From NCBI GenBank assembly GCA_040390045.1, contig JAZJZC010000002.1, positions 101,113-165,112 of the forward strand: 64,000 nt of DNA, given 5' to 3'. The position numbers were made by a program, and so were the translations under genes. The stretch is from Patescibacteria group bacterium (lineage in GTDB: Bacteria > Patescibacteriota > Minisyncoccia > Phycocordibacterales > SIBU01). How positions within the stretch are numbered: position 1 is the stretch's first letter; every line of letters begins with the position of its first letter. The notes beneath the pieces were generated by a model that was given only the letters and a program-made list of their open reading frames with translations, searched no databases and was not told the DNA's origin. Shown piece by piece: positions 24,761 to 45,380 of this stretch.

Positions 24761-25210
24761 CATGTAACACGTAACATGGAGCATGGAACAGAAGAGTCAA
24801 ATACGGAGAAAACATTCCACCAGAAGCTCCAGTTAAAAATTGATGAGTATGTCCACGGGGTGTATGCACTTAGTAAAAAATTCCCAAAGGAGGAAGCGTA
24901 TGGCATAACCTCTCAGCTAAGGCGAGCAAGTCTTTCTGTCCCGCTTAATTACATTGAGGGGTATGCGCGACAGAGGGATAAGGTCTACAAAAATTTTCTT
25001 GAAATTTCCTACGGTTCCCTGAAAGAATCCTTATATCTGATTAAGTTTTCTTATGACGAAAATCTAATTTCTAAAGAACAATATGAAAAATATATTAGTC
25101 TAGGAGATGAAATAGGCGCAATGATATGGTCAATTTTGCGCAAAATCTAGTCTTCTGGCCTCTTTATCCCCCCTTGTTGCATGCTACGTGCTCCATGTTC
25201 CATGATTCAG
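24761..25210. mobile_element. R2-family palindromic element carrying a four-helix-bundle gene
   Basis: Left end catgtaacacgtaacatggagcatggaacag (24761-24791). Right end atgctacgtgctccatgttccatgattcag (25181-25210) contains the reverse complement of the same acatggagca / catggaaca motifs. Confidence 0.5.
24776..25150 (+). CDS. four-helix-bundle protein (TIGR02436-like, the '23S rRNA intervening-sequence protein' family)
   Basis: KKFPKEEAYGITSQLRRASLSVPLNYIEGYARQ matches the family's conserved core. The N-terminal MEHGTEESN residues are partly encoded by the repeat end. Confidence 0.6.
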   Translation: MEHGTEESNTEKTFHQKLQLKIDEYVHGVYALSKKFPKEEAYGITSQLRRASLSVPLNYIEGYARQRDKVYKNFLEISYGSLKESLYLIKFSYDENLISKEQYEKYISLGDEIGAMIWSILRKI

Positions 25211-25352
25211 CCCGTTATCCACACCCCTTTTCAAACTTGAAACGAAAGGAGTATAATAGACCCATAGTAAATAACAGCCACTCTGAATGTATTAAGGAGA
25301 GGGCGGTCGAGCGGTTTAAAAAAATTATTAATTATTAAAATTTTTTAACATA

Positions 25353-25718
25353 ATGAAAAATTCAAAAGGTTTTACCCTTATCGAACTTTTGGTAGTTATC
25401 GCAATTATCGGTATCTTGTCTTCTGTTGTTTTGGTTAGCCTTAACAGTGCTCGCCAGAGAGCTAAGGATGCCGCCTTCAAAGCTGAGGCCACTGGAATAG
25501 TTCCAGGACTTGTAAGCATCTGTGATCAGGCCAACGTTGTTGTCGGTGATTTGGGTAGTCCTTCTACTTACTCGGCAGCTGCTGCTTTTGGAACAATTGT
25601 TCAGAGCTGTGGATCTTCTGGAACAGGAGTTTGGACTATGACAGTGACTGCAACCAACGGCGCCGTTTCTACTGCTGATGTTGCTGCATGTTCACAAAGT
25701 GGTTGTACATTCAGTTAG
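25353..25718 (+). CDS. type IV pilin (major-pilin candidate)
   Basis: [26 protein letters not shown] prepilin motif. 121 aa with a C-terminal Cys pair (CSQSGCTFS). Confidence 0.8.
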
Positions 25719-25740
25719 ATCTTTTTCTCAAGCTAGTTTA

Positions 25741-25776
25741 AAAAAACAAAGCCCTTTGCCGGGCTTTGTTTTTTTA
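25741..25776 (+). terminator. rho-independent terminator (caaagccctttgccgggctttg + T-tract)
   Basis: Perfect hairpin followed by tttttttaaa directly after the pilin stop. Confidence 0.7.
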
Positions 25777-26025
25777 AAGCGAACGAAAAATGTTACTATG
25801 GGGAGAGGCCTTTTTGATATAACATTTACGCCTTTTGCACTGGGGATTGGCGGAGCTTGTACTTCAGCTACTATGACGCAAGGATATGTTACATATGTGG
25901 GGTGTTAACAAGTCATTAAATTAAAATTGTTACCCAATGACCCTTTCCGCTCCGTGTCGAATGTGTGGATAAGTAGATTTCACTTTTAGTGTACAATAGA
26001 GCAATTAAGAACTAATTTATTTTTT

Positions 26026-26394
26026 ATGCAGTTACGCCAAAAAGGTTTTACTTTAATTGAGCTTCTCGTGGTTATCGCAATTATCGGTATTCTGTCTAGT
26101 GTTGTTTTAGTAAGTCTTAATAGCGCTCGCCAAAGGAGTAAAGATGCTGCATTTAAGGCAGAAGCTCGTGGTGTGGTGGCTGGAATAAATAGTATATGTA
26201 ATGAGGTTTCAGTAGTGGTTGCTGATCTCAAAACGCCATCAACTTACAGTGCCGCTGCCGCTTTTGGAACCATGGTGCAGAATTGCGGTTCTTCAGGAAC
26301 AGGTGTGTGGACTATGACTATAACGGCAACCAACGGGGCAGTTTCTACGGCTAATGTTGCTGCATGCTCCCAGGGTGGTTGTACTTTCAGTTAA
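26026..26394 (+). CDS. type IV pilin (tandem paralogue)
   Basis: [27 protein letters not shown] prepilin motif. About 70% identical to the preceding pilin, with a near-identical C-terminal disulfide-loop region. Confidence 0.8.
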   Translation: MQLRQKGFTLIELLVVIAIIGILSSVVLVSLNSARQRSKDAAFKAEARGVVAGINSICNEVSVVVADLKTPSTYSAAAAFGTMVQNCGSSGTGVWTMTITATNGAVSTANVAACSQGGCTFS

Positions 26395-26478
26395 TTCTTT
26401 AAGTATCAAAGAATACTATTGTGTGAGAGGCAGGAATCTGTCTAGGGTGGTTGTTTATATTTTCTTAACTATTTATTT

Positions 26479-26964
26479 ATGAATGATCAGACAAAAATCA
26501 AAAGCTACGGATTTACTCTCATCGAACTTTTGGTTGTGATTGCTATTGTGGGTATCTTATCTTCCGTGGTATTGATGAATTTAAATGGTGCTCGCGCAAG
26601 GTCTCGAGATGTGAAGCGTATTGCCGATGTCAAAAGCTTACAACTCGCGTTGGAATTGTATTTTGATAACAATCGTAGCTACCCCGCAACACTTTCAGTT
26701 TTGACTGCGGCGCCAACTTACATTTCCCCAGTTCCGACTCCTCCCGAAGGTGGTAGTTATGTGTATAGGCCGATTACTATCGGAGGTACTTGTAATAGCT
26801 ATCATTTGGGTGCGGTTTTGGAACAAAGTACTAGTGCTGAATTACTAACTGATGCAGACCCTCCTACGGGAAGTGTTTGCAGTGGAGCTGCGGATTTCAG
26901 TGGTGTAAGTACTGACTGTGGGACTGGTTCTGGAGCGGAGAGATGTTTCGATGTTGCGCCATAA
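26479..26964 (+). CDS. type IV pilin-like protein
   Basis: [32 protein letters not shown] prepilin motif. 161 aa with a C-terminal Cys-rich region. Confidence 0.75.
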   Translation: MNDQTKIKSYGFTLIELLVVIAIVGILSSVVLMNLNGARARSRDVKRIADVKSLQLALELYFDNNRSYPATLSVLTAAPTYISPVPTPPEGGSYVYRPITIGGTCNSYHLGAVLEQSTSAELLTDADPPTGSVCSGAADFSGVSTDCGTGSGAERCFDVAP

Positions 26965-26988
26965 ATTAAAATAGCCAATTTTGTTGAG

Positions 26989-27024
26989 AAAACGCCGGCT
27001 GGGCTTTGCCCAGCCGGCGTTTTC
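26989..27024 (+). terminator. rho-independent terminator (aaacgccggctgggctttgcccagccggcgtttt)
   Basis: 14-bp perfect stem with a T-tract. Confidence 0.7.
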
Positions 27025-27080
27025 GTTTAGCGGAAAAGTTACTCACGGAGTATAATAGAGGAGTGGGTCCCGTAGTAGAA

Positions 27081-27196
27081 AATGGCGTTGCTGTTTGCTA
27101 CAACAAGTTTTTAAAGTAACGCTAGATTGTAATTTACAAAACTTAATTTAATTTAAATTTGGTACAAGTTGCTTCACAGCAAACGACGCCATTTTT
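27081..27196 (+). promoter_or_regulatory. long-range inverted repeat (aaaatggcgttgctgtttgc ... gcaaacgacgccatttttc) in the pilD leader
   Basis: Arms of about 18 bp, roughly 80 nt apart, directly upstream of ATG 27206. Confidence 0.3.
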
Positions 27197-27205
27197 CACT
27201 ACCGG

Positions 27206-28069
27206 ATGGAAATTCTAACAACATTCCTCTTTTTTATTTTCGGCACCATTGTCGGAAGTTTTTTAAATGTTGTCATTCTCCGCTTTAACACTGGTGGGAC
27301 GCTCGGAGGGAGATCCCATTGTTTTACGTGTGGCAAAGACATCGCGTGGTACGACCTCGTGCCGTTGTGGAGTTTTTTATTTTTAGGCGGCACATGTCGT
27401 TTTTGCAAAAGTAAAATTTCATTTCAGTATCCCTTAGTTGAATTTCTAGCTGGTTTAATTTTTGCCATATCTTTCTGCCAATTTTCTCCTCAAGTTTCCT
27501 TGCTCGGCCTCTACCATACTACCGACTATCTACTATTCTCTATCTCTCTCATCATCTACTCTCTCTTGATTGTTATTGCCGTATATGATTTCCGTCACCA
27601 AATTATTCCCGACCTGTTAGTTTTTTTGTTCGCGATTTTTGCCTTGCTCAAATTATTTTTAATGAACGATGTGTCTGCGTTGTTTATGTTTCCCGGACTA
27701 CTCAATCTTTTAGCCGGACCACTGTTAGCCTTGCCGCTATTTCTCCTGTGGTTAGTTTCTCGTGGCAGATGGATTGGGCTTGGCGATGCCAAACTGATGC
27801 TCGGCGTTGGTTGGTTTTTAGGTTTCACTCTTGGCGCCTCGGCAATGATTATCGGTTTTTGGATAGGAGCTCTTGTTTCTGTCTTACTTCTCGGTCTCGG
27901 GAAACTTATGAAAGCCAGTTTCGGGCAATTTCTGGGTTTGAGTTTCAGCCTGAAAAATCTTACAATTAAGAGCGAAGTTCCTCTGGCGCCGTTTCTCATC
28001 CTCGGATTCTTTATAGCGGCCTTTTTCAAAATTGATGTTTTGGGATTGAGTTCAATGTTTTCTATATGA
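27206..28069 (+). CDS. pilD: prepilin peptidase PilD (A24 family)
   Basis: N-terminal tetracysteine CFTCGKDIAWYDLVPLW...CRFCKSKI, polytopic membrane topology. 287 aa. Confidence 0.8.
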   Translation: MEILTTFLFFIFGTIVGSFLNVVILRFNTGGTLGGRSHCFTCGKDIAWYDLVPLWSFLFLGGTCRFCKSKISFQYPLVEFLAGLIFAISFCQFSPQVSLLGLYHTTDYLLFSISLIIYSLLIVIAVYDFRHQIIPDLLVFLFAIFALLKLFLMNDVSALFMFPGLLNLLAGPLLALPLFLLWLVSRGRWIGLGDAKLMLGVGWFLGFTLGASAMIIGFWIGALVSVLLLGLGKLMKASFGQFLGLSFSLKNLTIKSEVPLAPFLILGFFIAAFFKIDVLGLSSMFSI

Positions 28070-28079
28070 ATTAAGAATT

Positions 28080-28763
28080 ATGAATTATGAATTAAGAAAA
28101 CAAAAAGATAAGTCGCGGAAGTGCTTTCCCAGGTTTTTCCATAATTCCTACTTCCTGATTCCTAATTCGCCTAAAAAGGGTTTTTCCCTGATTGAGCTTA
28201 TGGTCTCAATTGCCATTTTTACGCTTTTGACAAGCATTGTGATGGTAAGCCAGCAGAAATTTGGTGGTCAGATTTTGATTACCAATCTCGCGTATGATAT
28301 CGCGCTCGGTATTCGCGAAGCTCAGGTGTATGGTATCAGTGTTAAAACTACGACAGGTGGGAAGTTTGATAAAAGTTACGGTATTCATTTTAAAGATCCT
28401 AATTATTATGTTTTGTTTGTGGATAGTAGCCCGGCGAATGGAAAATATGATGGGCCAGATAGTGGCAGTGCCTGTATGGCAGGCGGGGAGTGTCTTAGTT
28501 TTTTTAGAATAGAAAAAGGGAATGCGATTACTCGACTATGTGCCGATAACGAATGTACTGACTCTGGGGCTGGCAATCAAATTTCTGGACTTGACCTTTT
28601 ATTCACAAGACCTGAACCCGATCCAATGATCCATCCGTTGGATAACGCGGGCGCTCAAATGCTCGGTGCGTTTTCCACAGCTCAAGTGACGGTCGCCTCA
28701 CCGCAGGGTCTCACACGAACTATTAATATTTTAAAGAGCGGTCAAGTGTCGGTAGTTAATTAA
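28080..28763 (+). CDS. minor pilin / pseudopilin
   Basis: KKGFSLIELMVSIAIFTLL prepilin motif. It follows an unusually long (about 30-aa) leader, so the start is uncertain. Confidence 0.6.
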   Translation: MNYELRKQKDKSRKCFPRFFHNSYFLIPNSPKKGFSLIELMVSIAIFTLLTSIVMVSQQKFGGQILITNLAYDIALGIREAQVYGISVKTTTGGKFDKSYGIHFKDPNYYVLFVDSSPANGKYDGPDSGSACMAGGECLSFFRIEKGNAITRLCADNECTDSGAGNQISGLDLLFTRPEPDPMIHPLDNAGAQMLGAFSTAQVTVASPQGLTRTINILKSGQVSVVN

Positions 28764-28768
28764 TTGAC

Positions 28769-29347
28769 ATGAAACTTTCGCTGAAAAATTCAAAAGGCTT
28801 TACCCTCATAGAAATTTTGGTTTCCATCGCGCTTTTTGGTTTTGTGATGCTTGCCACTACGTCAACATTATTGAGTCTTGTTGATGCTAATCACAAAGCA
28901 CAATCAACTAAAACCGCAATCGATAACCTGAGTTTGGCGCTTGAAAGTATGACGAGAAATATTAGAACTGGCACACAATATAACTATGCTGGCGGCCATC
29001 ACTGTTCATCAACGTCGGGTGGAAGCACGGATGGGTATACCGGTATAAGTCTTAAAGACCAGAAAGGTAATGACCTAAGTTATTCTTGGGTTGAGGGGAG
29101 TGACGATATTAAAAAAACCCTTAACAGTAATACCTTCACTATCACCTCTCCAGAAATTACTATAGATCGTTTGTGTTTTTATATTGCGGGAACTAGCGCA
29201 ACTGACGGGACCGGTGAAGAACAGCCGATTGTTTCCGTGACGATTGGCGGAGTAGTCAACAACACGATTGCCGCAGGGGCCAAGCAAAAAACGGTTTCTC
29301 GTTTTGATATTCAAACATTAGTTTCGCAGAGAGTTTTGGATATATAA
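28769..29347 (+). CDS. minor pilin / pseudopilin
   Basis: [28 protein letters not shown] prepilin motif. Confidence 0.7.
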   Translation: MKLSLKNSKGFTLIEILVSIALFGFVMLATTSTLLSLVDANHKAQSTKTAIDNLSLALESMTRNIRTGTQYNYAGGHHCSSTSGGSTDGYTGISLKDQKGNDLSYSWVEGSDDIKKTLNSNTFTITSPEITIDRLCFYIAGTSATDGTGEEQPIVSVTIGGVVNNTIAAGAKQKTVSRFDIQTLVSQRVLDI

Positions 29348-29351
29348 TTAT

Positions 29352-29954
29352 ATGACAGTGTTGCAACCAGTAAAAAAAGTTGGGAACCTTCATCATTACA
29401 AAAAGCGTAATGCCGGTTTTACCATCATTGAAACCATTGTGGCGATCGCGATACTCGCTGTGGCCGTGGTTGCGCCACTCTCTCTTGCGCAACGGAGTTT
29501 GAACGCTGATATCTATGCTCGAGATCAAGTTACCGCTTTTTATTTAGCTCAAGAAGCGGTTGAGTATGTTAGAAATATCAGAGATGGTAATGGTTTAAGT
29601 GTCACCCCCTTAACCGGCTGGCTCGATGGGCTCAATGAGTGCACAGGAAATAATTATTGTGGTATTGATCCTTCTAATCGCGAGCCACCGAGTCGCATCA
29701 TCGCCTGTGATCACTTGAGCAACAATGATGGCTGTCAATTAGTTTTTGATTCATCATTAAAAATATACAGAGCAATGGTAGGAGGCGAGACAGCAAGCAG
29801 TCTTTTTCGCAGGGAGCTTCAAATACGACCAGTCGGTAGCCTTTTGCCAAATGACGCGGCTGATATTATTTCGACTGTGACGTGGCAGGTTGGGAGTATT
29901 ACAAAAACCCTTGTAATTAATGCTAGAATTTTTAATTGGTATCAGTCGTCGTAA
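29352..29954 (+). CDS. minor pilin / pseudopilin
   Basis: KKRNAGFTIIETIVAIAILAVAVV prepilin motif. Confidence 0.7.
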   Translation: MTVLQPVKKVGNLHHYKKRNAGFTIIETIVAIAILAVAVVAPLSLAQRSLNADIYARDQVTAFYLAQEAVEYVRNIRDGNGLSVTPLTGWLDGLNECTGNNYCGIDPSNREPPSRIIACDHLSNNDGCQLVFDSSLKIYRAMVGGETASSLFRRELQIRPVGSLLPNDAADIISTVTWQVGSITKTLVINARIFNWYQSS

Positions 29955-29958
29955 AAAA

Positions 29959-30067
29959 CACGGAACATGGAGCACAGAACACAGAACAGAAAAAAAGAAG
30001 GAAAGAGCCGCGCGCTTTGCGCGCGGCCTTTTCCCCATGCTGCATGCTCCATGATTCATGCTCCATG
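29959..30067. repeat. R2 palindromic element (no cargo) enclosing a terminator hairpin
   Basis: cacggaacatggagcacagaacacagaacag ... gccgcgcgctttgcgcgcggc ... catgctgcatgctccatgattcatgctccatg. Confidence 0.65.
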
Positions 30068-30497
30068 CCAAAAGGGTTTCGCCCTCTTGTTCGCCGTGCT
30101 CGCCTCAAGCGTTTTTCTCTCAATCGGTATCGCCATCTGGAATATTTCTTTGCGCCAGGTTCTTTTTTCTTCTTTCGGTCGGGAATCACAAGTGGCTTTT
30201 TACGCCGCTGATGCTGGCATTGAGTGTGCACTGTTTTATGACACTAAACATGATTATTTTAATCCCGATGATCCTGCTACTGTAATGAATTGTGGTGGAG
30301 GAGATGTGATGATTGATCCAGATGCCAATCCCGTTTTTACCATATCGGATATTAGGCTCACGGATTCTGATACAGGTCCCTGTGTCGATGTGACAGTTAC
30401 GAAAGATCTCATCACCACGGTGGAAGCTCGAGGGCATAATACTTGCGACACTTTAAGTCCGACACGAGTAGAGCGCGGGTTGAGAGTAACCTACTAA
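30051..30497 (+). CDS. pilin-like protein lacking Glu5 (GspK/PilX-type minor pilin candidate)
   Basis: MIHAPCQKG|FALLFAVLASSVFLSIGIAIW. The first ATG of the listed ORF (29967, MEHRTQN...) lies inside the R2 repeat and is probably not used. Confidence 0.45.
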   Translation: MIHAPCQKGFALLFAVLASSVFLSIGIAIWNISLRQVLFSSFGRESQVAFYAADAGIECALFYDTKHDYFNPDDPATVMNCGGGDVMIDPDANPVFTISDIRLTDSDTGPCVDVTVTKDLITTVEARGHNTCDTLSPTRVERGLRVTY

Positions 30498-30502
30498 TCC
30501 CC

Positions 30503-32521
30503 ATGGCTCGCATTCCAGAAGGCATTGTGAAAAGACTCGAAAAGCTTCGAGCGACGATTGAAAAAGAACGCTACGCGTATCACGTTCTTGATAAACCCGA
30601 AATGTCAGAAGCGGCGCTCGACTCGTTGAAGCACGAACTTGTGCAAATTGAAACAGAATATCCGGAACTTATTACTCCTGATTCTCCTTCGCAAAGAGTG
30701 GCGGGGAAGCCCTTGCCGCAATTTACCAAAGTGCGTCACACGGTACCGCAGTGGTCGTACAACGACGCTTTTAGTCCTGAGGAGATGGTTTTGTTTGATG
30801 AGCGGGTGAAGCGTTTTTTAAAAACGGAAACCAAAAAGGACATTTCTCCAACCTACACCTGCGAACATAAAATCGATGGTTTAAAAATTGTGCTTGAATA
30901 TAAAAAAGGACTACTTTTCCGAGCAGCTACGCGAGGAGACGGTACTATCGGTGAGGACGTTACGGAAAATGTTAAAACTATTGAATCGGTGCCACTTCGA
31001 CTCACCGAGTCAGTGGATATTATTGTTGAAGGTGAAGTGTGGATGGCCAAAAGCCAATTGAAAATTTTGAATGATGCGCGGAAAATTGCGGGCGAAGAGC
31101 CGTTCGCCAACCCAAGAAATTTGGCTGCTGGTTCTATTCGCCAGCTCGATCCTGCTGTGGCGGCGTCTCGAAAATTACAGACATTTATTTATGACGTTGC
31201 ACAGTACGAGAAAAAATTACCCGACGGTCAGTCGGCAGAATTGGAATTATTGAAGCGCTTGGGTTTTAAAGTAAATCCATATTACAAACATTGTAAAAAT
31301 ATCTCTGAAGTGGTGGCCTACTGGATGGAATGGCAAAAAAAGATGAACAAAGAGGATTATTTGGCTGATGGGGTGGTGGTGAAAATTGATGAACGGATCT
31401 ACCAGGAAGCACTGGGCTACACCGGCAAAGCGCCGCGATGGGGAATTGCCTTTAAATTTGCTGCAGAGCAAGTGACAACCATCGTAGAAGACATTGTACT
31501 GCAGGTTGGGCGAACGGGAGTTTTGACGCCGGTAGCTCATTTAAAACCTGCGACGGTGGCGGGTTCCTTAGTTTCGCGAGCCACGCTTCACAATGAAGAC
31601 GAAATCAAACGACTCGATGTCAGAATCGGAGATACAGTAATTCTACAAAAAGCCGGGGATGTTATTCCCGACATTGTTTCCGTAGTTACAGATTTACGGA
31701 CTGGGAAAGAAAAACCTTTCAAATGGCCGACCCATGTCGAGGCGTGTGGAGGAGACGGTAGTATCGAAAGAATTCCAGGAGAATCTGCATGGCGCTGTGT
31801 TAATAAAAACTCCTTCCCTCAGGTTAAGCGAAAATTTTATCATTTCGTTTCAAAAAAATGTTTCAATATGGATGGGCTTGGTCCTAAAATAATTGACGTG
31901 CTTTTAGAAAATAATTTAATCGCCACCTTCGATGATATTTTTAAATTGAAGCGCACTGACCTTTTGGCGCTGCCGCGATTTGCTGAAAAATCAGTCGATA
32001 ATTTGCTTGAAACAATAGAACATTCACGAAAGGTGACCCTGCCGAGATTTTTGGCGTCACTTTCGATTCCGCAGGTTGGTGAAGAAACCGCCTATGACTT
32101 AGCCAATCATTTTTTCAGTCTAAAGGCAGTTTCAAAAGCCACATTTTCTGAGCTTGAAGTCATCAATGGTGTTGGGCCAGTTGTCGCGCAGTCTTTGGTG
32201 GATTGGTTTAAAGAAAAAAATAATCGCGCGCTAATCAGTAGATTAGAGTCCCAGGTAGTTATTGAAAAAGTGGTAAAGCCTGACGTTTCAAAATTGCCGC
32301 TTTCTGGAAAATCTTTTGTCTTGACTGGAACACTCGCCTCAATGAGTCGTGATGAAGCGGGGCAAAAAATCCGCGCGCTTGGAGGAGAGGTTTCAAGTTC
32401 GGTCTCAAAAGCTACCAGTTTCTTGGTCGCAGGGGAAAGCGCTGGTTCGAAATTGGATAAAGCTCAAACTCTCGGTGTTTCAGTTTTGAGCGAGGAACAG
32501 TTTTTGAAAATGTTAAAATAA
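30503..32521 (+). CDS. ligA: NAD-dependent DNA ligase LigA
   Basis: Start MARIPEGIVKRLEKLR. KIDG adenylation motif (CEHKIDGLKIV), Zn-finger cysteines and a C-terminal BRCT domain. About 672 aa. Confidence 0.9.
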   Translation: MARIPEGIVKRLEKLRATIEKERYAYHVLDKPEMSEAALDSLKHELVQIETEYPELITPDSPSQRVAGKPLPQFTKVRHTVPQWSYNDAFSPEEMVLFDERVKRFLKTETKKDISPTYTCEHKIDGLKIVLEYKKGLLFRAATRGDGTIGEDVTENVKTIESVPLRLTESVDIIVEGEVWMAKSQLKILNDARKIAGEEPFANPRNLAAGSIRQLDPAVAASRKLQTFIYDVAQYEKKLPDGQSAELELLKRLGFKVNPYYKHCKNISEVVAYWMEWQKKMNKEDYLADGVVVKIDERIYQEALGYTGKAPRWGIAFKFAAEQVTTIVEDIVLQVGRTGVLTPVAHLKPATVAGSLVSRATLHNEDEIKRLDVRIGDTVILQKAGDVIPDIVSVVTDLRTGKEKPFKWPTHVEACGGDGSIERIPGESAWRCVNKNSFPQVKRKFYHFVSKKCFNMDGLGPKIIDVLLENNLIATFDDIFKLKRTDLLALPRFAEKSVDNLLETIEHSRKVTLPRFLASLSIPQVGEETAYDLANHFFSLKAVSKATFSELEVINGVGPVVAQSLVDWFKEKNNRALISRLESQVVIEKVVKPDVSKLPLSGKSFVLTGTLASMSRDEAGQKIRALGGEVSSSVSKATSFLVAGESAGSKLDKAQTLGVSVLSEEQFLKMLK

Positions 32522-32524
32522 TTA

Positions 32525-33202: not shown

Positions 33203-33278
33203 ACTTTATAATACTATCACGAAAATAAGGTAAAGAAATTATATTAACCAATTTTTGGTTTTGTGTTACCATTGAGCC

Positions 33279-33563
33279 ATGATCAGCATTAAAGAAATTG
33301 AAAAATTGGCTGAGTTGAGCCGGCTTCAGTTGTCAGAAGAGGAAAAACAAGCTTTTCAGAAAGACCTCGAATCTATTTTGGGGTACATAGATCAGATTCA
33401 GAAAGTTTCCGCTGATTTGTCGAGCGAAAAAAAAGCTGGCGTCATTCACAATGTGTTACGCGATGACACTGCTCCGTATGCGAGTGGCATGTATACCGAA
33501 ATTTTGATTTCCGCCGCACCAAAAAGGGAAAGTAACTATCTCAAAGTAAAGAAGATACTTTGA
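33279..33563 (+). CDS. gatC: Asp/Glu-tRNA amidotransferase subunit C
   Basis: MISIKEIEKLAELSRLQLSEEEKQAFQKDLESILGYIDQI is a typical GatC. 94 aa. Confidence 0.8.
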   Translation: MISIKEIEKLAELSRLQLSEEEKQAFQKDLESILGYIDQIQKVSADLSSEKKAGVIHNVLRDDTAPYASGMYTEILISAAPKRESNYLKVKKIL

Positions 33564-33685: not shown

Positions 33686-33686
33686 T

Positions 33687-36776: not shown

Positions 36777-38135
36777 ATGGCTAAAAATTTAAAAATCATC
36801 ATCTTTTTGAGTCTTTTTGTGAGCGTTTTAATGCTCGGCCATTTTACGTGGGCCCAAACTGCTACTGACGACGCTGTGGCCAAACGCCAGGCCGCGCTTC
36901 AAGCAGAGTTGGATAAAACCCAAAAAGATATTGACTACTGGGCAAATATTTTGGCCGGCAAGCAAAAAGAAACCGCCTCAATTTCCCGAGATATTTCTAT
37001 ATTAAATGCAAAAATTGCCGAGGCTAACGCGCTCATTAAAAAGAAAAATATTATAGCTCAGCAACTCGGGAAGGATATAACCGCGAAAGTTGCCACCATT
37101 GAAACACTCGATCAAAAAATGGAAAGGCAGAAGTCTGCTTTAGCAGAACTTATCCGAAAAACCAATGAGGTCGAGAGCTATTCAGTGGGTGAGCTGGTGT
37201 TGAGTGGCAAACCGCTTTCCGATTTTTTTGTGGACTTGGAAGCTTCTGGTTTTATTACCGAATCACTCAATTCTGCACTCGCGCTTGTGCGTGAGACTCG
37301 TATTGAAACAGAAGCGGAGAAAGAGGATTTGAGTAAAAAACAAGCGGCGGAAATTGACGCGCGTAAAGCGGCAGAAGCCGAGCAGAGATTGGTGAAGAAA
37401 AACGAAGAGCAAAAAAAACAACTGTTGGCTGTTAACAAAAATCAAGAAAAAGCCTACCAGAGTATTTTATCTGAACGGCAAAAAGCGGCGGCAAAAATTA
37501 GGTCAGCGTTGTTTGCACTTCGTGATAGTGCCTCGATTCCTTTCGGCACAGCCTATAACTATGCGTTGGAAGTTCAAAAAGTAACCGGCGTGCGCCCAGC
37601 ATTTTTGCTCGCCATTCTAACTCAAGAAACTAATCTTGGTGAAAACGTTGGGCAGTGCCTCGTTACCAATTTGGTTACTGGAGATGGCGTCGGTAAAAAT
37701 ACAGGAACAGTTTTTAAAGGCATCATGAAGCCGACCAGAGACTTAGCGCCGTTTATTAATTTGGCCAGTCGTCTTGGTTTTGATCCTGCTTCTCAGCCAG
37801 TATCTTGTCCTCAGGGCGGAGGGTACGGCGGAGCTATGGGGCCTTCACAATTTATTCCTTCGACATGGGTTGGATACGAAAAAAGAATTGCTGCAGCGAC
37901 TGGTGTGGCAATTCCAAATCCGTGGATAGCTCACGATGCGTTTTTTGCTTCAGCTTTGTATTTGGCTGATCTGGGTGCTGGAGCAGGGGGCTATTCAGCT
38001 GAATCTGCCGCTGCGGCAAAATATTATGCAGGAAGTAATTGGAAAAAAACTGCCGGGCAAAATTATGCTTCGAGCGTCATGGGACACGCTCAAAATATTC
38101 AGGAGAATATGATTGATCCGTTGCAGAATCTTTAG
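36777..38135 (+). CDS. secreted coiled-coil protein with C-terminal MltB/Slt35-like lytic transglycosylase domain
   Basis: Start MAKNLKIIIF lies 7-8 nt after a GGAGG RBS; signal peptide present. ILTQETNLGEN and GAMGPSQFIPSTW motifs are typical of lytic murein transglycosylases. Confidence 0.65.
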   Translation: MAKNLKIIIFLSLFVSVLMLGHFTWAQTATDDAVAKRQAALQAELDKTQKDIDYWANILAGKQKETASISRDISILNAKIAEANALIKKKNIIAQQLGKDITAKVATIETLDQKMERQKSALAELIRKTNEVESYSVGELVLSGKPLSDFFVDLEASGFITESLNSALALVRETRIETEAEKEDLSKKQAAEIDARKAAEAEQRLVKKNEEQKKQLLAVNKNQEKAYQSILSERQKAAAKIRSALFALRDSASIPFGTAYNYALEVQKVTGVRPAFLLAILTQETNLGENVGQCLVTNLVTGDGVGKNTGTVFKGIMKPTRDLAPFINLASRLGFDPASQPVSCPQGGGYGGAMGPSQFIPSTWVGYEKRIAAATGVAIPNPWIAHDAFFASALYLADLGAGAGGYSAESAAAAKYYAGSNWKKTAGQNYASSVMGHAQNIQENMIDPLQNL

Positions 38136-38175
38136 GATAGATTTAAGATTCACGATTCAAGATTTAAGAATGGGA
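38133..38175. repeat. R3 motif (atagatttaagattcacgattcaagatttaagaat)
   Basis: An almost identical 40-nt motif recurs at 45376-45421 after pheS. Confidence 0.5.
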
Positions 38176-38185
38176 AAAGAAAAAA

Positions 38186-38621: not shown

Positions 38622-38852
38622 ATGAAAAAAGACACCCACCCACAATATTTTGCAAAAGCTACTGTTACCTGCGCCTGCGGTAACGTTTTTCACATTGGCT
38701 CTACTAAAGAGAAGATTGATGTTGAAATCTGCAGTGCTTGCCACCCTTTTTATACTGGAAACGATAAGGTTATCGATACCGCCGGTCGCGTTGAACGATT
38801 CAAATCTCGCGCCGCTAAAGTTGCAACAAAGGTTAGCAAAAAGACGAAGTAG
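38622..38852 (+). CDS. rpmE: ribosomal protein L31
   Basis: [46 protein letters not shown] (CxxC...CxxC zinc-ribbon form). Confidence 0.85.
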
Positions 38853-38862
38853 CTTCTCCGGC

Positions 38863-38960
38863 TATACGAAAGGGGTACGAAAATACGAAAAAATACGAAA
38901 GCTTTTTTGGTACCATCACGGTTTTCGTATAGTTTCGTATTTTCGTAATTTACTTTCGTA
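38863..38960. repeat. R1 palindromic intergenic element (copy 4)
   Basis: ctaTACGAAaggggTACGAAaaTACGAAaaaaTACGAAagcttttttggtaccatcacggttttcgtatagtttcgtattttcgtaatttactttcgta. It runs right up to the prfA ATG. Confidence 0.7.
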
Positions 38961-38961
38961 T

Positions 38962-39921
38962 ATGGATTTAGAACCCTATAAAAAAAATCAAAAGACTAGC
39001 TATCTGGCAGAACGGTATGAAGCTCTCGTTAAGGAAGAACAAGAGCTTTTAAAAATGGCTGAAAAAGACCCTGGGTTAAAAGAATTGACCGAAGAAGAAC
39101 TTTCGGCTATTCGTGCTGAACAAAAAATTCTGGCCGATCAAATGCAGAAAAATCTGGCTGAAGATGAGGTCGAGGAGGAATTTCCAAGAGAAGCCATTCT
39201 TGAAGTTCGAGCTGGGGCTGGTGGGGAGGAAGCCGCACTTTTTGCCGAAGAGCTTGCCATCATGTACAAAAAGTACGCCGAGACCGTTGGTTGGTCTTGG
39301 AAAACGGTTTCTCAATCGGAAAGTTCTCTTGGTGGTTACAAAGAAGCCACATTTGAAATTTCTGGAGATGATGTGTATAAAAAATTACGTTTTGAAACCG
39401 GAGTTCATCGAATTCAGCGGGTTCCAGCTACGGAAAAAATTGGCCGCGTGCATACCTCAACCGCTTCGGTGGCGGTTCTCCCAATTCGTAAAAAAGTTTC
39501 ATTTGAGATCAACCCGGTTGATTTGGAAATGGAATTTTCGCGTTCAGGTGGAGCCGGCGGACAAAATGTTAACAAGGTGGAAACAGCAGTGCGCCTCATT
39601 CACAAGCCTACCGGACTTGATGTGCGTTCAACGTCCGAAAGAAGTCAGGTGAAAAACCGAGAAAAGGCTTTGGCGATTTTGTCGGCCAAAATTTTGGCGC
39701 TGAAAGAGGAGGAGGAAGCCAAAAAATACGCCGGTGTGCGTAAAAATCAAATCGGTACCGGCGATCGTTCCGAAAAAATCAGAACCTACAACGTTTTACA
39801 GGATCGCGTAACCGATCACCGAATTAAAGAATCATGGCACAATATTGCCGGAATTTTCGAGGGAAATATTGGTGCGATTATCGAAGCTCTTTCCGCAGAG
39901 GCAGAAAAAAACTCAAATTAA
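38962..39921 (+). CDS. prfA: peptide chain release factor 1
   Basis: Start [25 protein letters not shown] (PxT tripeptide) and GGQ motif ([11 protein letters not shown]). The longer listed ORF from 38650 reads through rpmE and the R1 repeat and is rejected. Confidence 0.85.
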
Positions 39922-40048: not shown

Positions 40049-40780
40049 ATGACAACGTCAAAAACCCAATCACATAGCACCGAAACTATCGATTCAATGT
40101 TTAAGGCCGGAGCCCACTACGCTTTTTCTCGTTCTCGACGACACCCAACTTTGGCACCATTTATTTTCGGTGTTAAGAATCATGTTGAAATTTTCGACTT
40201 GGAAAAGACCAATGAACTCCTTGAAAAGGCCAAAGATTTTGTAAGAACACTCGCAACCGAAGGCAAGCAGATTTTGCTCGTCGGCGGTAAAAGTGAGGCC
40301 CGCGATGCTATCAAGCGAGCGGCAGCTGAACTCGACATGCCATACGTTGTTGACCGCTGGCTCGGAGGTACACTCTCAAACTTTAAAGAAATTCGATCCC
40401 GCGTCGAGAAGCTTCTTGATTTGACCGCTAAACGCGAGAAAGGAGAACTTTCCAAATATACAAAAAAAGAACGACTTTTGATTGATCGCGAAATCGAGAA
40501 GCTCGAGCGATTTTTCTCAGGTCTTGTCCCAATGAAAGAATTGCCAAAAGCTCTTTTTGTCATTGACTCAAAACACGAACACATCGCAGTGACCGAAGCC
40601 AGAAAAGCTGGTATTCCTGTAATCGCTCTTATGGGTTCGGACTGCAATATTAAAACTGTTGATTATGCTATTCCAGGAAACGACGCTTCAATCGCTAGTG
40701 TGGCCTTTTTTGTGGATCAGATCGTGTGGGCATACAAGGAGGGTAGAAATGAAAAGCTAAAGAAGGCACAAAACGCGTAA
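40049..40780 (+). CDS. rpsB: ribosomal protein S2
   Basis: MTTSKTQSHSTETIDSMFKAGAHYAFSRSRRHPTLAPFIFG...IDSKHEHIAVTEARKAGIPVIAL. Confidence 0.85.
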   Translation: MTTSKTQSHSTETIDSMFKAGAHYAFSRSRRHPTLAPFIFGVKNHVEIFDLEKTNELLEKAKDFVRTLATEGKQILLVGGKSEARDAIKRAAAELDMPYVVDRWLGGTLSNFKEIRSRVEKLLDLTAKREKGELSKYTKKERLLIDREIEKLERFFSGLVPMKELPKALFVIDSKHEHIAVTEARKAGIPVIALMGSDCNIKTVDYAIPGNDASIASVAFFVDQIVWAYKEGRNEKLKKAQNA

Positions 40781-40848
40781 CACGTAGCATGGAGCATAAG
40801 ACAGGGACACTATGTTCCATGTTGTGTGCTCCATGTTCCATGAACACC
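40774..40848. repeat. R2 palindromic element between rpsB and tsf
   Basis: cgcgtaacacgtagcatggagcataagacagggacactatgttccatgttgtgtgctccatgttccatgaacacc. It overlaps the rpsB stop and supplies the false MEHKTGTL... extension on tsf. Confidence 0.65.
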
Positions 40849-41436
40849 ATGATTACAACAGAACAAATTAAAGAACTTCGCGACTCAACTGGGATTTCAG
40901 TGATGCAATGCAAGAAAGCTTTGGAAGAAGCTCAGGGTGACATGGAAAAGGCACTTGTGATTTTGAGGAAGAAAGGCGCAGATATTGCTAACAAAAAATC
41001 AGATAGAACCTTAGGAGCGGGGATTATCGCTTCATATGTTCACAGTAATGGCCTTGTAGGATCCATCGTTGAACTTTCCTGTGAGACCGATTTCGTTGCC
41101 AAAAATCAGGAATTTAAAACCTTGGCGTATGATTTGGCGATGCATGTTGCCGCCAGCAATCCTACCTATCTCAAACCTCAGGATATTACTGAAGAGGCGA
41201 AAGCAAAGGCTCGAGAAGTTTTTGCTAAAGAAATTGTTGGAAAGCCTGCGGCTATGCAAGAAAAAATTATGGAAGGTAAGCTTCAGTCATACTTTGGCGA
41301 AGCCACACTCCTTGATCAGTCATTTATTAAAAATCCAGATTTGACTGTTCAAGGGTTGATTCAATCAGCCATACAAAAATTCGGTGAAAAAATAGAAGTG
41401 AGCCGATTCGTTAGATTTGGGGTTTTGGAAAAATAA
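40849..41436 (+). CDS. tsf: elongation factor Ts
   Basis: Start MITTEQIKELRDSTGISVMQCKKALEEAQGDMEKALVIL (UBA-like N-terminus). 195 aa. Confidence 0.85.
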   Translation: MITTEQIKELRDSTGISVMQCKKALEEAQGDMEKALVILRKKGADIANKKSDRTLGAGIIASYVHSNGLVGSIVELSCETDFVAKNQEFKTLAYDLAMHVAASNPTYLKPQDITEEAKAKAREVFAKEIVGKPAAMQEKIMEGKLQSYFGEATLLDQSFIKNPDLTVQGLIQSAIQKFGEKIEVSRFVRFGVLEK

Positions 41437-41454
41437 CCAGCTCTTAAAATGTAT

Positions 41455-41854
41455 GTATATTCTCGATCTCAGTGTGATAATTGTTTCTACGATCGGGGGT
41501 CTGTCTCTTTTTTTGGTTAAGTTTTTTGAAATAAAATCTGGCCAGCCGGGGGTTTTGACTCGCGTAAGCCTTTTTGCTGATCCAACATTTTCGGCATTTG
41601 GCAGTAAGCTCAGAAGGTTTTGGTTGGAGTTGGAAAATTTTCCGTTCAGAAAAGTGCTACACCAGTTTATTCAGGGAGTTTTCCATCTTTTCGGAGTCAC
41701 GGGTTTGTTTATTGCGAAGTACCACAAGCAGTTTATAAACAGTAAGAGACAGATCAATGAAAAAGGGGTAGTTTCCTTTTTTCTTAAAGATGTGGCAGAA
41801 TCGAGAGAGAGTAAGACAGATCACGGAACACAGAACACAGATCATAAAATGTAA
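41455..41854 (+). CDS. hypothetical small membrane protein (uncertain)
   Basis: MYILDLSVIIVSTIGGLSLFLVKFF... in an ORF that ends inside an R2 repeat. The start is ambiguous; the listed ORF overlaps the tsf end. Confidence 0.25.
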
Positions 41855-41899
41855 GAGAGAAAAATGTTTCGTGGTCCGTGTTCTGTGGTCTGTAACGTG
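41822..41899. repeat. R2 palindromic element abutting tRNA-Thr
   Basis: cacggaacacagaacacag ... gtggtccgtgttctgtggtctgtaacgtg. It ends 7 nt before the tRNA. Confidence 0.6.
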
Positions 41900-41906
41900 A
41901 AAGAAT

Positions 41907-41982
41907 GCCACCCTAGCTCAGTTGGTAGAGCGCCACTTTTGTAAAGTGGATGTCGTCAGTTCGAATCTGACGGGTGGCTCCA
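41907..41982 (+). tRNA. tRNA-Thr (anticodon UGU), CCA encoded
   Basis: Manual fold. 7-bp acceptor gccaccc/gggtggc. D-arm tagctcagttggtagagc. Anticodon stem ccact/agtgg with loop tTTGTAa. T-arm gtcag-ttcgaat-ctgac. Discriminator t, then cca. Confidence 0.85.
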
Positions 41983-43029: not shown

Positions 43030-43049
43030 ATTGATTATAATTTTAGCTT

Positions 43050-43095
43050 TTTTCGAATTTCGGATTTGAGATTTCGTGCTTACACGTTTCGTGTT
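43050..43095. repeat. half-copy of the R1-related motif (ttcgaatttcggatttgagatttcgtgcttacacgtttcgtg)
   Basis: Shares ttcgaatttcg and atttcgtgctta with the element at 33650-33681. Confidence 0.4.
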
Positions 43096-43096
43096 G

Positions 43097-44338
43097 TTAT
43101 CTCCAACTTGTATTTTTAGATAAAACTACGAGATAAATAGCTTTTGATAGCCATGCGATAGAAAAAATGCCGTATACCAAAGGAAAATATAAAGTATGAA
43201 AAGAGAAATGGTTGTTTTTAGTATCTGAGATTTGTTTACCGAGCGTGACGAGAAGGATGGTTGAGAGGAAGAGTAGTAGCCCCAGAAACATTTTTGAATC
43301 AGTATTGATGAAAAACCAATCAAAATGAAAGCCGTTCCAGACCCAATTAAAACCAATGGTTTTAATTTCTGTATATTTATCAGCAACCATTCTCAGGATA
43401 TTTATTGATACCATGCCAACGGAGACCATGAAAAGCACGATACCAACGACCGACATCGGAAGCATAAAAAGTCCCAAGTGTTTGTGTTTTGGATTGAAAA
43501 ACATCGAACGATAATCGATTGAGTTGGCAAGAAAACCGCTCACCCAGCGAACTCGTTGGCGGTAGAGTTTAGCGAAAGACCCTGGTCCAACCGTGTAGAC
43601 GACAGCGTCGTGCGCGTTGCCGATACGATAACCATTTTTCTGCATGCGCATAGCAATCTCCAAGTCTTCGGTATTGTGAGCTTCGTGGAATAATCCAAGA
43701 TTATCAAAAACTGTTTTTCGAAAAATAGAAAAGGGCCCGGGAGTCACGGTGATTGCATCGAGCATGCTGAAAGATTTTTTCATAAAAATACCCAGGTTGT
43801 ATTCGTTGCTTTGAACATGGCGGATCATTCGGTCAGGCTCGAAAATTTTAATGGCCGGTGTTACTGCCATGATTTTTTGATTTTCAAAATGGGGAATAAT
43901 TTTCGTCAGCGTATCTGGTGGGACAAATGAATCGGCGTCGAGACATCCGACAAGCTCGGTTTCCGTTTTACGGATGGCGGCATTAAGCGCGGTATATTTC
44001 CCTCCATTTTTTTTATTGATGACCTCGATCCGTTTGTTCCATCGGAAAGTTTTCAATACACCGGCTGTGTCATCGGTTGAACCGTCATTAACTGCAATAA
44101 TTTTCAATTTGTCTTTCGGGTAGTCTAATTTTAACAGTGAGTAGATTGTTTTACTGATGGTTTTTTCTTCGTTGAATGCAGGCACAATGATAGTAACTGA
44201 TGGAAGAATCGACGATAACTTGATTTTCTCACCGCCTTTTTCAGTGCGGTTTTCCAAAAAGCTGATCAGCAAAAAAACTTCAAAGTACAATGACGTGAAA
44301 AAAGAAATATAGAGAATGATGTTAGAAATTTGACTCAT
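43097..44338 (-). CDS. family-2 glycosyltransferase (processive, QxxRW type; polytopic membrane)
   Basis: Start MSQISNIILY. IIVPAFNEE ... NDGSTDDT ... LDADSF ... QRVRWVSG motifs, with C-terminal TM helices. Confidence 0.7.
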   Translation of the reverse strand: MSQISNIILYISFFTSLYFEVFLLISFLENRTEKGGEKIKLSSILPSVTIIVPAFNEEKTISKTIYSLLKLDYPKDKLKIIAVNDGSTDDTAGVLKTFRWNKRIEVINKKNGGKYTALNAAIRKTETELVGCLDADSFVPPDTLTKIIPHFENQKIMAVTPAIKIFEPDRMIRHVQSNEYNLGIFMKKSFSMLDAITVTPGPFSIFRKTVFDNLGLFHEAHNTEDLEIAMRMQKNGYRIGNAHDAVVYTVGPGSFAKLYRQRVRWVSGFLANSIDYRSMFFNPKHKHLGLFMLPMSVVGIVLFMVSVGMVSINILRMVADKYTEIKTIGFNWVWNGFHFDWFFINTDSKMFLGLLLFLSTILLVTLGKQISDTKNNHFSFHTLYFPLVYGIFSIAWLSKAIYLVVLSKNTSWR

Positions 44339-44469
44339 TGTAAGGGTTTGGCCCCTGTGTTTTCCTAGTCTACTGCATCGCAAGCTCTAACTCAAGGTAG
44401 GTAGGGCGCTTTCGCACACGCTATGCATGGGTTGCGCTTGGGTTGTGTGGTTTCAAAATTAGACTCAAA

Positions 44470-44511
44470 AGCAACACACTAATTCATTGCTATAGCAATG
44501 AATTAGTGTGT
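44470..44511. promoter_or_regulatory. perfect 19-bp-arm palindrome (aacacactaattcattgc tat agcaatgaattagtgtgtt) upstream of pheS
   Basis: Seen directly in the sequence. It lies between divergent-orientation genes and may be a bidirectional terminator or an operator. Confidence 0.4.
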
Positions 44512-44573
44512 TTGAAGTTTTCAAGGATTCTTAATGTTTGGGCGTATTTCTCCTTTTTCTTCTTTACTATATA

Positions 44574-45380
44574 ATGACTGCTATGCAGGACAAGGAACAG
44601 GTTGCACAAGGACATATTCACCCGATTTCACGGGCGATTTTTGATATTCGAACAATCTTTGCCGAACTGGGTTTTGCTGTTGCGGTGGGACCTGAAATGG
44701 AGGATGAGTGGCACAATTTTGACGCGCTTAATATTCCTAAAGATCATCCGGCACGCGATATGCAGGACACCTTCTGGCTCAAGAATGCGGAACAGACGCA
44801 GAACAACGCAGAACGAACGCCGAAGAATACCCACGAAAATTTTCCGCATCAGTCCGCGTCCATTCCGCGCAGTTCTGCACTTCTGCGTACTCATACAAGT
44901 CCGGTACAAATAAGATATATGGAAAAAAAACTCGAAGCTGGCATACAGCCGCCATATCGAATTATCGTGCCAGGAAAAGTTTTTAGAAATGAAGCCACGG
45001 ACGCTACTCACGAAGCGCAATTTTTTCAGGTTGAGGGGTTGTATGTTGATAAAAATGTTTCTATGGCTCACTTGAAAGGTGTTCTTGAGTTTTTCTTTAA
45101 AAAGTTTTTCGGCAACGATGTAGTCATTCGATTTCGTCCAAGTTTTTTTGCGTTCACCGAGCCGTCGGTGGAAGTTGATATGAAATTTAAGGGCAAATGG
45201 CTTGAAATGATGGGAGCAGGGCTCGTGCATCCAAACGTTTTAAAGGCCGCAGGCGTGCCGGAAGGCTTTAGTGGGTTTGCTTTCGGCGGAGGCATTGATC
45301 GAATGGTGATGGTGAAGTACGGCATCACCGATATTCGATTACTGTATTCCGGAGATTTGCGCTTAGTTAATCAGTTCTAA
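44574..45380 (+). CDS. pheS: phenylalanine-tRNA ligase alpha subunit (short form) with in-frame repeat insertion
   Basis: Start MTAMQDKEQ immediately after tataat (leaderless?). Class II motifs FRNEATDATHEAQFFQVEG and GFAFGGGIDRMVMVKYGI. About 30 extra residues between DTFWL and LLRTHTSPVQ. Confidence 0.85.
   Translation: MTAMQDKEQVAQGHIHPISRAIFDIRTIFAELGFAVAVGPEMEDEWHNFDALNIPKDHPARDMQDTFWLKNAEQTQNNAERTPKNTHENFPHQSASIPRSSALLRTHTSPVQIRYMEKKLEAGIQPPYRIIVPGKVFRNEATDATHEAQFFQVEGLYVDKNVSMAHLKGVLEFFFKKFFGNDVVIRFRPSFFAFTEPSVEVDMKFKGKWLEMMGAGLVHPNVLKAAGVPEGFSGFAFGGGIDRMVMVKYGITDIRLLYSGDLRLVNQF
44786..44882 (+). repeat. R2-like palindromic insertion inside the pheS reading frame
   Basis: tgcggaacagacgcagaacaacgcagaacgaacg ... 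cgcatcagtccgcgtccattccgcgcagttctgca. It encodes NAEQTQNNAERTPKNTHENFPHQSASIPRSSA without breaking the frame. Confidence 0.55.

Follow-up and report, generated by a model that had tools for sequence, protein, structure and literature searches.

Rickettsia palindromic elements (RPEs) are defined sequence families of approximately 100-150 bp that contain no tandem heptamers and carry no cargo, and the Correia hairpins of Neisseria are cut by RNase III. A different design is found in the intervening sequences (IVSs) of 23S rRNA. The IVS of Coxiella burnetii is 428-444 nt long, has a 28-bp terminal stem and contains an open reading frame (ORF) of the S23p type; the start codon is preceded by tandem GACAGAT heptamers, whose number varies between strains, and RNase III cuts the IVS at the first repeat (PMC4990558). 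Tandem heptamers have also been described in Xanthomonas (GGGAATC) and Nostoc (GGGGA(C/T)T, STRR), where they are mostly intergenic and lie between co-directional genes; each Xanthomonas genome holds about 70-75 convergent inverted pairs, which are transcribed and have no known function (PMC4692102). Here we analyze a repeat family, called R2, in a 64,000-nt stretch of DNA from a Patescibacteria group bacterium (assembly GCA_040390045.1, contig JAZJZC010000002.1, positions 101,113 to 165,112; "the window" in the following). The arms of the R2 hairpins are built from 7-nt units, and one copy encloses a gene for an S23p-family four-helix-bundle (4HB) protein. The window carries a type IV pilus cluster, rpsB-tsf, tRNA-Thr and pheS-pheT, and the closest relatives of its Tsf protein are found in metagenome-assembled genomes of the Parcubacteria/Ca. 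Taylorbacteria type, with at most 81% identity. Coordinates are those of the window, and features are on the plus strand unless stated otherwise.

Inverted repeats are present at all five stretches, here copies A to E, which a preliminary description of this DNA had assigned to R2. In copies A to D each arm is an array of degenerate 7-nt units and the two arrays are inverted with respect to each other, with CAYRGAR in the left arm and its complement in the right; the two arms of one copy have the potential to form an imperfect stem of approximately 25-40 bp. The motif CATGGAGCA has seven matches where 0.42 would be expected, all of them within A, B or C and arranged as inverted pairs, and the two-unit pattern CAYRGARCAYRGAR, with at most one mismatch, has 17 matches against 0.57 expected, 16 of which fall in A to D. 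The same periodicity is seen in the 22 lag-7 tracts of the window (at most 11 for any other lag between 4 and 12) and in the period of 7 or 14 that Tandem Repeats Finder (TRF) reports for the R2 arms. The eight window arms align in one register with the arms of two loci from other genomes (L103 and L085, see below), with CA invariant every 7 nt, and among the eight there is in addition a conserved A at unit position 6. An inverted-repeat search returned arms of 27-28 nt with 74-78% complementarity for A, C and D, and the plus-strand folds of B, C and D have z-scores of -4.8 to -5.3, none of 200 shuffled sequences being as stable, so that both measures give a stem-loop of the kind that defines an IVS. 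The tandem units occur in convergent, mainly intergenic pairs, as they do in the inverted pairs of heptameric simple sequence repeats (SSRs).

It is clear from these results that R2 is a real and well-defined repeat family comprising copies A to D. The earlier picture of a dispersed palindromic family, with one copy carrying cargo and the others none, is thereby borne out, and four of its five proposed members are secured by unit pattern and periodicity (B to D by their folds as well), whereas the evidence does not extend to copy E, which is treated below. A terminal motif that was said to be shared by A and C is indeed there, as the 20-mer GTAACACGTA(A/G)CATGGAGCA at the left ends of both (19 of 20 positions identical), but it starts at 24764 and 40777, 1-2 nt away from the positions first given. 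The copies measure approximately 75, 78, 109 and 450 nt, their ends fade out, and their arms are differing strings of units; neither the fixed termini nor the uniform length of a miniature inverted-repeat transposable element (MITE) was found among them.

The single unit-pattern match outside A to D, at 9289-9302, belongs to an extra partial arm (CACAGAA CATGGAT CATG, 9270-9302, minus strand) that overlaps the called ATG of a 2950-aa ORF and falls outside the range originally reported for R2. Inside this ORF (9293-18145) there are numerous repeats, which are 300, 107 or about 50 nt in length, and the region upstream from it (9108-9300) is a complex hairpin region in which a GC terminator-like stem is found along with the partial arm.

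Copy A is 450 nt long and corresponds to inverted repeat I9 (24763-24790 and 25182-25209). Its left arm (24751-24793; AACACAT AGCATGT AACACGT AACATGG AGCATGG AACAGAA), detected as a lag-7 tract, as a TRF period of 14 and by unit-pattern matches, lies directly 3' of the T2SSF stop codon (24750-24752). The right arm (25173-25211) consists of the left-arm units in reverse complement (GCTCCATGTTCCATG) and was detected as an inverted repeat, as a lag-7 tract, by the unit pattern and by alignment. The suggestion that copy A brackets a 4HB gene is confirmed by the ORF at 24776-25150, which encodes 124 aa and matches PF05635 (E=1.5e-27) and TIGR02436 (E=3.5e-28), the "23S rRNA intervening-sequence protein", that is, the kind of ORF that IVSs carry. 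The start codon of this ORF lies in the last units of the left arm, which places tandem heptamers directly upstream from it, again as in an IVS. The best match in the PDB is 2GSC (Xanthomonas XCC0516, E=9.8e-13). In comparisons with homologs dN/dS was below 0.1 (3 of 15 pairs having unsaturated dS), and for this reason we regard the 4HB protein as functional and under purifying selection. PADLOC gave no defence-system match for it. The protein resembles Avd of diversity-generating retroelements, with a homologous four-helix-bundle fold and weak matches to PF22296 (33.1 bits, cut-off 40) and NF033474 (31.4 bits, cut-off 80), but an assignment as Avd was rejected on these scores and on the surroundings, where the neighbours are T2SSF and pilins and neither a reverse transcriptase nor a template/variable repeat pair lies nearby. 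Between copy A and the first pilin gene (25353) there is a promoter-like site at 25228-25257 (TTTTCA, 18 nt, TATAAT; 10 of 12 matches); across the region such sites are no more common than in shuffled sequences.

The DNA around homologs of the 4HB protein was taken from metagenomes, genomes and viral contigs (loci designated by L numbers). Inverted heptamer arms surround at least 19 of the approximately 22 homologous 4HB genes from other genomes, among them those of L082, L084-L086, L088, L089, L091, L093, L095, L096, L098 (two genes), L100, L101, L103 and L228-L230. The sequence of the arm unit varies by lineage: CTTGAAG / CGTGAAG in L082, L098, L100 and L101, AGCACAT / AACACAT in L085, CACATAA / CACGTAA in L086, GTCATAA in L088 and L089, GCTAGGAA in L091, GCAGCTA in L094/L095, GTAACTN in L096, GTAACGT in L230, GACTGTT in L229, and the R2 units CATGGAG / CATGGAA in L103. 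The complementarity between upstream and downstream flanks averages 16.4 within a cassette, compared with 8.9 +/- 2.9 between mismatched cassettes, and the similarity of the arms climbs with the identity of the proteins (Spearman 0.41, permutation p=0.0007). The cassette of L103, with a 69% identical protein and R2-type arms, is part of a type IV secretion-like operon, where a PrgI-like gene lies on one side of it and a TraC-like gene on the other. That of L085 has frr as one neighbour and as the other a class II tRNA-synthetase gene, which we read as glycyl-tRNA synthetase, and that of L086 lies 3' of a ROK kinase gene, while the position of copy A between T2SSF and pilin genes recurs in at least three other genomes (P0002, L084 and L100). 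Since the first three loci differ and the last one recurs, the comparison shows arms and ORF behaving as one heritable unit, relocated in some lineages and long kept at one site in others.

Further loci were recorded in the course of this comparison. Starting at the left arm and continuing through the cassette and beyond it, L091 and L092 share approximately 98% identity, but only about 60-70% upstream from the arm, a pattern that suggests a breakpoint of recombination there. In L098 a single operon holds two PF05635 genes (2501-2854 and 4083-4454) separated by 1.2 kb, and both have inverted arms of their own. The 4HB protein used as a single query had no close homolog in viral contigs, and an alignment query returned six viral loci, five of them distinct (L226 and L227 are near-duplicates), with arms in three of the five. 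The 16-mer CATGGARCATGGARCA has at least 120 matches in viral contigs, which by a rough estimate is close to chance, and only the multi-match loci are real arrays; none of the 120 viral loci listed for CATGGARCATGGARCA encodes the 4HB protein. Among these, L125 has a GGAGCAT/GCTCCAT array of about 25 heptamers (10945-11120), L150 an ORF-less GGAGCAT/GCTCCAT hairpin (870-1020) between ORFs that, read from their translations, are terminase-large-subunit-like and portal-like, and L174 GGAGCAT-type arrays (7660-7690 and 8300-8325) inside the call of a 768-aa ORF; no 4HB gene is near any of the three.

Copies B, C and D contain no ORF, are built from units as in copy A, and each fills the whole spacer between co-directional genes; R2 copies extend over the stop codon on their upstream side and reach up to the start codon that follows. 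Copy B begins 1 nt past the stop codon (29952-29954) of ORF 29352-29954, at the end of the minor-pilin operon. Its left arm (29955-30003; AACACGG AACATGG AGCACAG AACACAG AACAGAA) was seen as a lag-7 tract, by the unit pattern and with a TRF period of 7, and its right arm (30026-30072; CATGCTG CATGCTC CATGATT CATGCTC CATGCC) by lag-7 and TRF. The loop holds a GC-rich, terminator-like 10-bp hairpin (AGCCGCGCGC TTT GCGCGCGGCC; 30006-30028, no strand assigned) found by folding and by a terminator scan. Copy B had been said to wrap the terminator of the operon without any cargo: it has no cargo and does enclose a hairpin, but the terminator scan scored it as a terminator on the minus strand only, and the T-tail on the plus strand is weak (CTTTTCC). 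The left arm of copy C (40767-40808; lag-7, unit pattern) overlaps the last codons of rpsB and its TAA stop codon (40778-40780), and the right arm (40809-40848; inverted repeat I12, unit pattern, TRF) stops precisely where the tsf start codon begins (40849). The left arm of copy D (41811-41856; GACAGAT CACGGAA CACAGAA CACAGAT CATAAAA; lag-7, unit pattern, TRF) supplies the stop codon, and approximately the dozen codons before it, of a hypothetical ORF (41417-41854), and its right arm (41863-41902; inverted repeat I10, unit pattern) stops a few nucleotides before tRNA-Thr (41907-41982), in line with the 7 nt reported earlier.

The rpsB-tsf spacer was used to see whether relatives hold the same sequence as an ancestral leader. 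Among 80 relatives the spacers range from 0 to 371 nt, their sequences are unrelated and many lack a hairpin; R2 9-mers are not enriched in the 80 orthologous tsf loci (1.15 Mb), where no orthologous R2 copies were present for a comparison of filled and empty sites, and phmmer found no 4HB homolog among all ORFs of these loci. Because of the variable spacers and the lack of enrichment, B, C and D are regarded as insertions and not as conserved leaders. Hairpins of other unit types occupy the spacer in L001, L014, L016, L021 and L036, and in L058 a GIY-YIG gene lies there between inverted repeats. Comparable to the latter is a GIY-YIG nuclease-like ORF with an in-frame stop at 47311-47658 of the window, bracketed by a 31-nt inverted repeat (94% complementary). 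The order ORF, terminator-like hairpin, right arm is also found in the L086 cassette, and since copy B has kept such a hairpin, it looks like a cassette after loss of its ORF, as far as we can infer from the layout.

Copy E is an in-frame palindromic insertion in pheS (44786-44882), located between the codons for DTFWLK and LLRTHTS and supported by inverted repeat, fold, PheS alignment and TRF. It adds about 28 codons, giving a PheS loop of 33 aa compared with 5-7 aa in most relatives, so the observation that palindromic repeat DNA can lie in frame within coding sequence holds. The minus-strand RNA folds at -51 kcal/mol (z -5.4). The inclusion of copy E in R2 is not upheld, however, as its period is approximately 11 nt with the unit GAACAACGCA (TRF) and the R2 unit pattern has no match in it; we regard it as the same kind of element with membership in R2 unproven. 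The stretch from DTFW(L/I)K to (L/V)LRTHTS measures 21-45 aa in L008, L021, L041, L058, L069 and L070. The extra DNA is palindromic in L070 (folding at -55.6 kcal/mol), L041, L058 and the window, and is a one-armed heptamer array in L021 and L008. Repeats of this type have thus landed or expanded more than once in the PheS loop of Parcubacteria, and they explain the unusual low-complexity stretches found within conserved proteins, PheS being an example. The pheS insertion would be a case of its own, in which a palindrome of like kind became fixed, in frame, in a surface loop able to tolerate it.

The units also have consequences for start codons. CATG is self-complementary and repeats every 7 nt, and ATG is therefore offered in all three frames by both arms. 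The MEH codons that had been located at 24776, 29967 and 40789 are where they were said to be, and the view that ATGs donated by R2 lengthen the ORF calls of tsf and of a pilin-like gene agrees with the homologs. With 40849 taken as the start of Tsf, the alignments with 80 relatives begin at residue 1-2, and the 40789 start is thus a longest-ORF artefact; in the PilX-like gene position 1 of the PilX_N profile falls near residue 36, which fits the in-frame ATG at 30051 as the likely start, although the public gene call uses 29967. The MEHG start of the 4HB ORF (24776), listed as spurious in the same context, is on the contrary probably genuine, because most of the homologous ORFs examined start at the same place, in or directly after the left arm. 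In L084 and L091 there is no in-frame ATG at the left arm. The syntenic 4HB ORF of L084 (193-567; T2SSF-cassette-pilin) has the ATG of its last arm unit out of frame, which hints that gain or loss of a 7-nt unit, by shifting the frame, could produce slippage-dependent on/off translation. In L098, L100 and L101 the public calls for genes downstream from the cassettes start inside the cassette.

Similar effects are seen with other repeats of the window. The R1 family (TACGAAA units at 8-10 nt spacing) forms hairpins at 21745-21862, 23396-23546, 35778-35896 and 38864-38971, the last one inside the N-terminal part of a release-factor ORF call (38650-39921); since the PCRF domain begins only at residue 114, this is probably another false extension. 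R2-type elements in this way cause false N-terminal extensions in gene calling of the candidate phyla radiation, in tsf, in the PilX-like gene and probably in the release-factor ORF behind the R1 copy. A further heptamer hairpin at 28058-28172 (GAATTAA left, TTCCTAA right) begins at the stop codon of the prepilin peptidase and extends into pilin ORF 28080. It seems to be translated as a 33-aa leader, because the sole in-frame start before the KKGFSLIEL motif lies in its left arm.

Other repeats were noted alongside these. One-armed arrays of AGATTTA / AGATTCA, about 4.4 units each, lie directly 3' of the stop codon of an SLT-domain gene (38134-38177) and directly 3' of the pheS stop codon before pheT (45379-45428); an inverted partner was found for neither. 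CGAAATT / TTTCGTA heptamer tracts are found at 33570-33681, as an inverted pair filling the gatC-gatA spacer, and at 43040-43078. Just 3' of gyrB (51066-51215) perfect 20-nt inverted arms (GGAATCATTTCCCAAGAACA), which are not heptameric, enclose a terminator-like GC hairpin. An AATTAG-type unit family has 9 occurrences across relatives against 3.6 expected, which is suggestive only of a shared family.

We consider it moderately likely that the R2 copies are palindromic cassettes of the IVS type, together with ORF-less forms, residing outside rRNA and with a stem that is processed or harmless at the RNA level. By analogy with the 23S rRNA IVSs, for which there is experimental proof, the element would be co-transcribed with its neighbour genes, and the stem would offer RNase III a double-stranded RNA target, or would at any rate act as a hairpin that is inert or stabilising. 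A cut in the stem would disconnect the cistrons on either side and free the ORF-bearing loop, and for this reason insertion beside essential genes could be tolerated. The number of heptamer units would probably change by replication slippage, and new copies might come from recombination, from transposition or from a role of the 4HB protein itself. Several observations weigh against this proposal. The processing of R2 stems by RNase III is what we infer from the rRNA case, and a comparison of sense and antisense duplex energies in 16 cassettes gave no difference (p=0.59) and hence no strand-specific RNA signal, duplexfold being a crude measure on such long flanks; in B and E the sense RNA even folds worse than the antisense. 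A cleavable stem within the essential pheS mRNA would be costly. An Rfam scan of the window returned two tRNAs only and no rRNA gene. The arms are weak or missing in L090, L226 and L231, the recurring site between T2SSF and pilin genes argues for long vertical persistence over recent movement, and the derivation of B to D from a cassette by loss of the ORF draws on the shared units and the copy B hairpin only. A wider version, about which we are doubtful, would make 4HB genes with heptamer arms a widespread and unrecognised class of mobile hairpin cassettes with the rRNA IVSs as a subset, in which the Avd-like protein would recognise its own arms and help to copy or relocate them, for example with a reverse transcriptase acting in trans, and ORF-less hairpins would be decayed or non-autonomous offspring.

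Repeats of this kind could also be shaped in other ways. Short repeats can mislead assemblers, and no independent contig with copies C to E was obtained when PheS, PheT and two variants of the Tsf start were looked up as exact proteins, so the junctions might be chimeras. The Logan assembly of run SRR26324623 has a 12,369-nt contig (L081) that is identical to the window from 23519 to 35150, spanning A and B with no mismatch over the 11,632 nt compared, although it may derive from the same reads as the window assembly. For this reason an assembly artefact is unlikely for A and B; D and E are crossed by clean reading frames, equivalent structures occur in about 20 unrelated assemblies, and chimeras caused by repeats are hardly credible as a general explanation. 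An origin on the spot, by heptamer slippage, template switching to an inverted partner and gene conversion with nothing transposing, is the picture drawn for the cyanobacterial STRR and the Xanthomonas GGGAATC repeats. It would account for the excess of lag-7 tracts in the 80 relatives (192, compared with 92-129 at lags 4, 5, 8, 10 and 11), for the single-arm arrays, which lie at 38134-38177, at 45379-45428 and in the inserts that L021 and L008 carry in pheS, for an outer right arm of the pheS insert that is built of conserved LLR codons, and for the differing unit numbers of Coxiella strains (PMC4990558). The CATGGAG/CATGGAA arms nevertheless accompany a 69% identical ORF at another locus of another genome (L103), arm similarity follows ORF similarity, and close relatives hold different unit families in the same spacer; local origin without movement of the unit is therefore hard to sustain and appears rather unlikely to us.

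Movement by a transposase, with the copies as non-autonomous transposons (of MITE, RPE or Correia type), the arms as terminal inverted repeats and the 4HB gene as a passenger, fits the sequence shared between copies, best seen in the 20-mer of A and C, as well as their location at gene boundaries and within coding sequence and the different loci occupied by related cassettes in different genomes. Inspection of the boundaries of A to E, a test weakened by their diffuse nature, showed no target-site duplication at any copy, and among approximately 35 window ORFs scanned against Pfam there was no transposase or reverse transcriptase. Lengths of 75-450 nt with fading ends and arms made of variable heptamer strings in place of a fixed terminal repeat are equally at odds with this explanation, and the co-variation of cargo and arms across genomes is not expected of a passenger gene; we judge it unlikely. 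The arrays might instead be binding sites, of the operator or nucleoid type, for a pentameric 4HB protein, the hairpin being secondary, an idea that could coexist with the IVS-type cassette. Both S23p and Avd are pentameric proteins, and nucleic acid is bound by Avd. PMC4990558 cites the pentamer as well. Strong purifying selection on the protein, a unit type that follows protein phylogeny and arrays of 4-6 units are in its favour, but within the clade that shares about 65-70% identity with the window protein the units still differ at one position (CATGGAR vs CNTGAAR), and the R1 and GAATTAA/TTCCTAA (28058-28172) hairpin families have no cognate gene in the window, so that we find it quite improbable as the primary explanation.

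Returning to the IVS-type cassette, how the R2 elements stand among described systems can now be stated. The parallel with RPEs and Correia elements drawn in the preliminary description proved to be one of analogy, in view of the missing target-site duplications, fixed termini or length, and transposase. With RPEs R2 shares palindromic DNA that is kept in frame where the protein can tolerate it; examples are the C-terminal tail of ORF 41417-41854 and the pheS insertion, which is in frame as RPEs are and whose membership in R2 is unproven. RPEs are not known to be related to R2 in sequence, and the tandem heptamer make-up differs from that of RPEs. Correia elements and MITEs are likewise short dispersed inverted-repeat elements co-transcribed with their neighbours, but have fixed terminal repeats, TA or other target duplications and uniform size classes, none of which was found for R2. 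TIGR-Tas arrays were considered and dropped, being tandem guide-RNA arrays and not inverted pairs flanking genes. The expectation that R2 has not been described for this lineage agrees with a literature search, part of which was diverted by homonyms of STRR and BAVD: it found no description of such hairpins in Patescibacteria and no report that non-rRNA S23p genes in general have heptamer arms. The inverted pairs of heptameric SSRs are alike in their tandem 7-nt units and intergenic location, and the best PDB relative of the window 4HB protein also comes from Xanthomonas campestris; their units are G-rich and studied as quadruplex formers, whereas the R2 units are of the CA...A type and not G-rich, and PMC4692102 draws no link to S23p-family genes.

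The likeness to the S23p-type IVSs of Coxiella, Leptospira, Haemophilus and Brucella (PMC4990558) goes further. It includes the length (428-444 nt, with 450 nt in copy A), terminal inverted repeats that pair in a stem of about 28 bp, a loop ORF of the same protein family, heptamers before the start (GACAGAT in Coxiella; GACAGAT, CACAGAT and CACAGAA in copy D), short forms without an ORF in other bacteria (cited in PMC4990558) and a sporadic distribution consistent with horizontal transfer. The differences are that known IVSs lie in helices 9, 25 or 45 of 23S rRNA, whereas R2 occupies spacers of mRNAs, a site beside a tRNA and perhaps also coding sequence, with no copy in a helix of 23S or 16S rRNA; that the Coxiella ORF is decaying, in contrast to the 4HB protein here with its purifying selection; and that excision by RNase III is known for Coxiella and only predicted here. 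The origin and movement of rRNA IVSs and the role of the S23p ORF have been a puzzle since about 1990, with hypotheses reviewed in PMC4990558. The presence of the design of stem, heptamers and ORF outside rRNA in several lineages makes this old question testable, since the covariation of arms and ORF and the purifying selection on the ORF open it to comparative genomics and biochemistry. The R2 design is therefore not new, being known from the S23p-type IVSs (PMC4990558) and the heptameric inverted pairs (PMC4692102), and the S23p-type IVS is the real and closest known counterpart of R2, which copy A matches point for point except for the location in rRNA.

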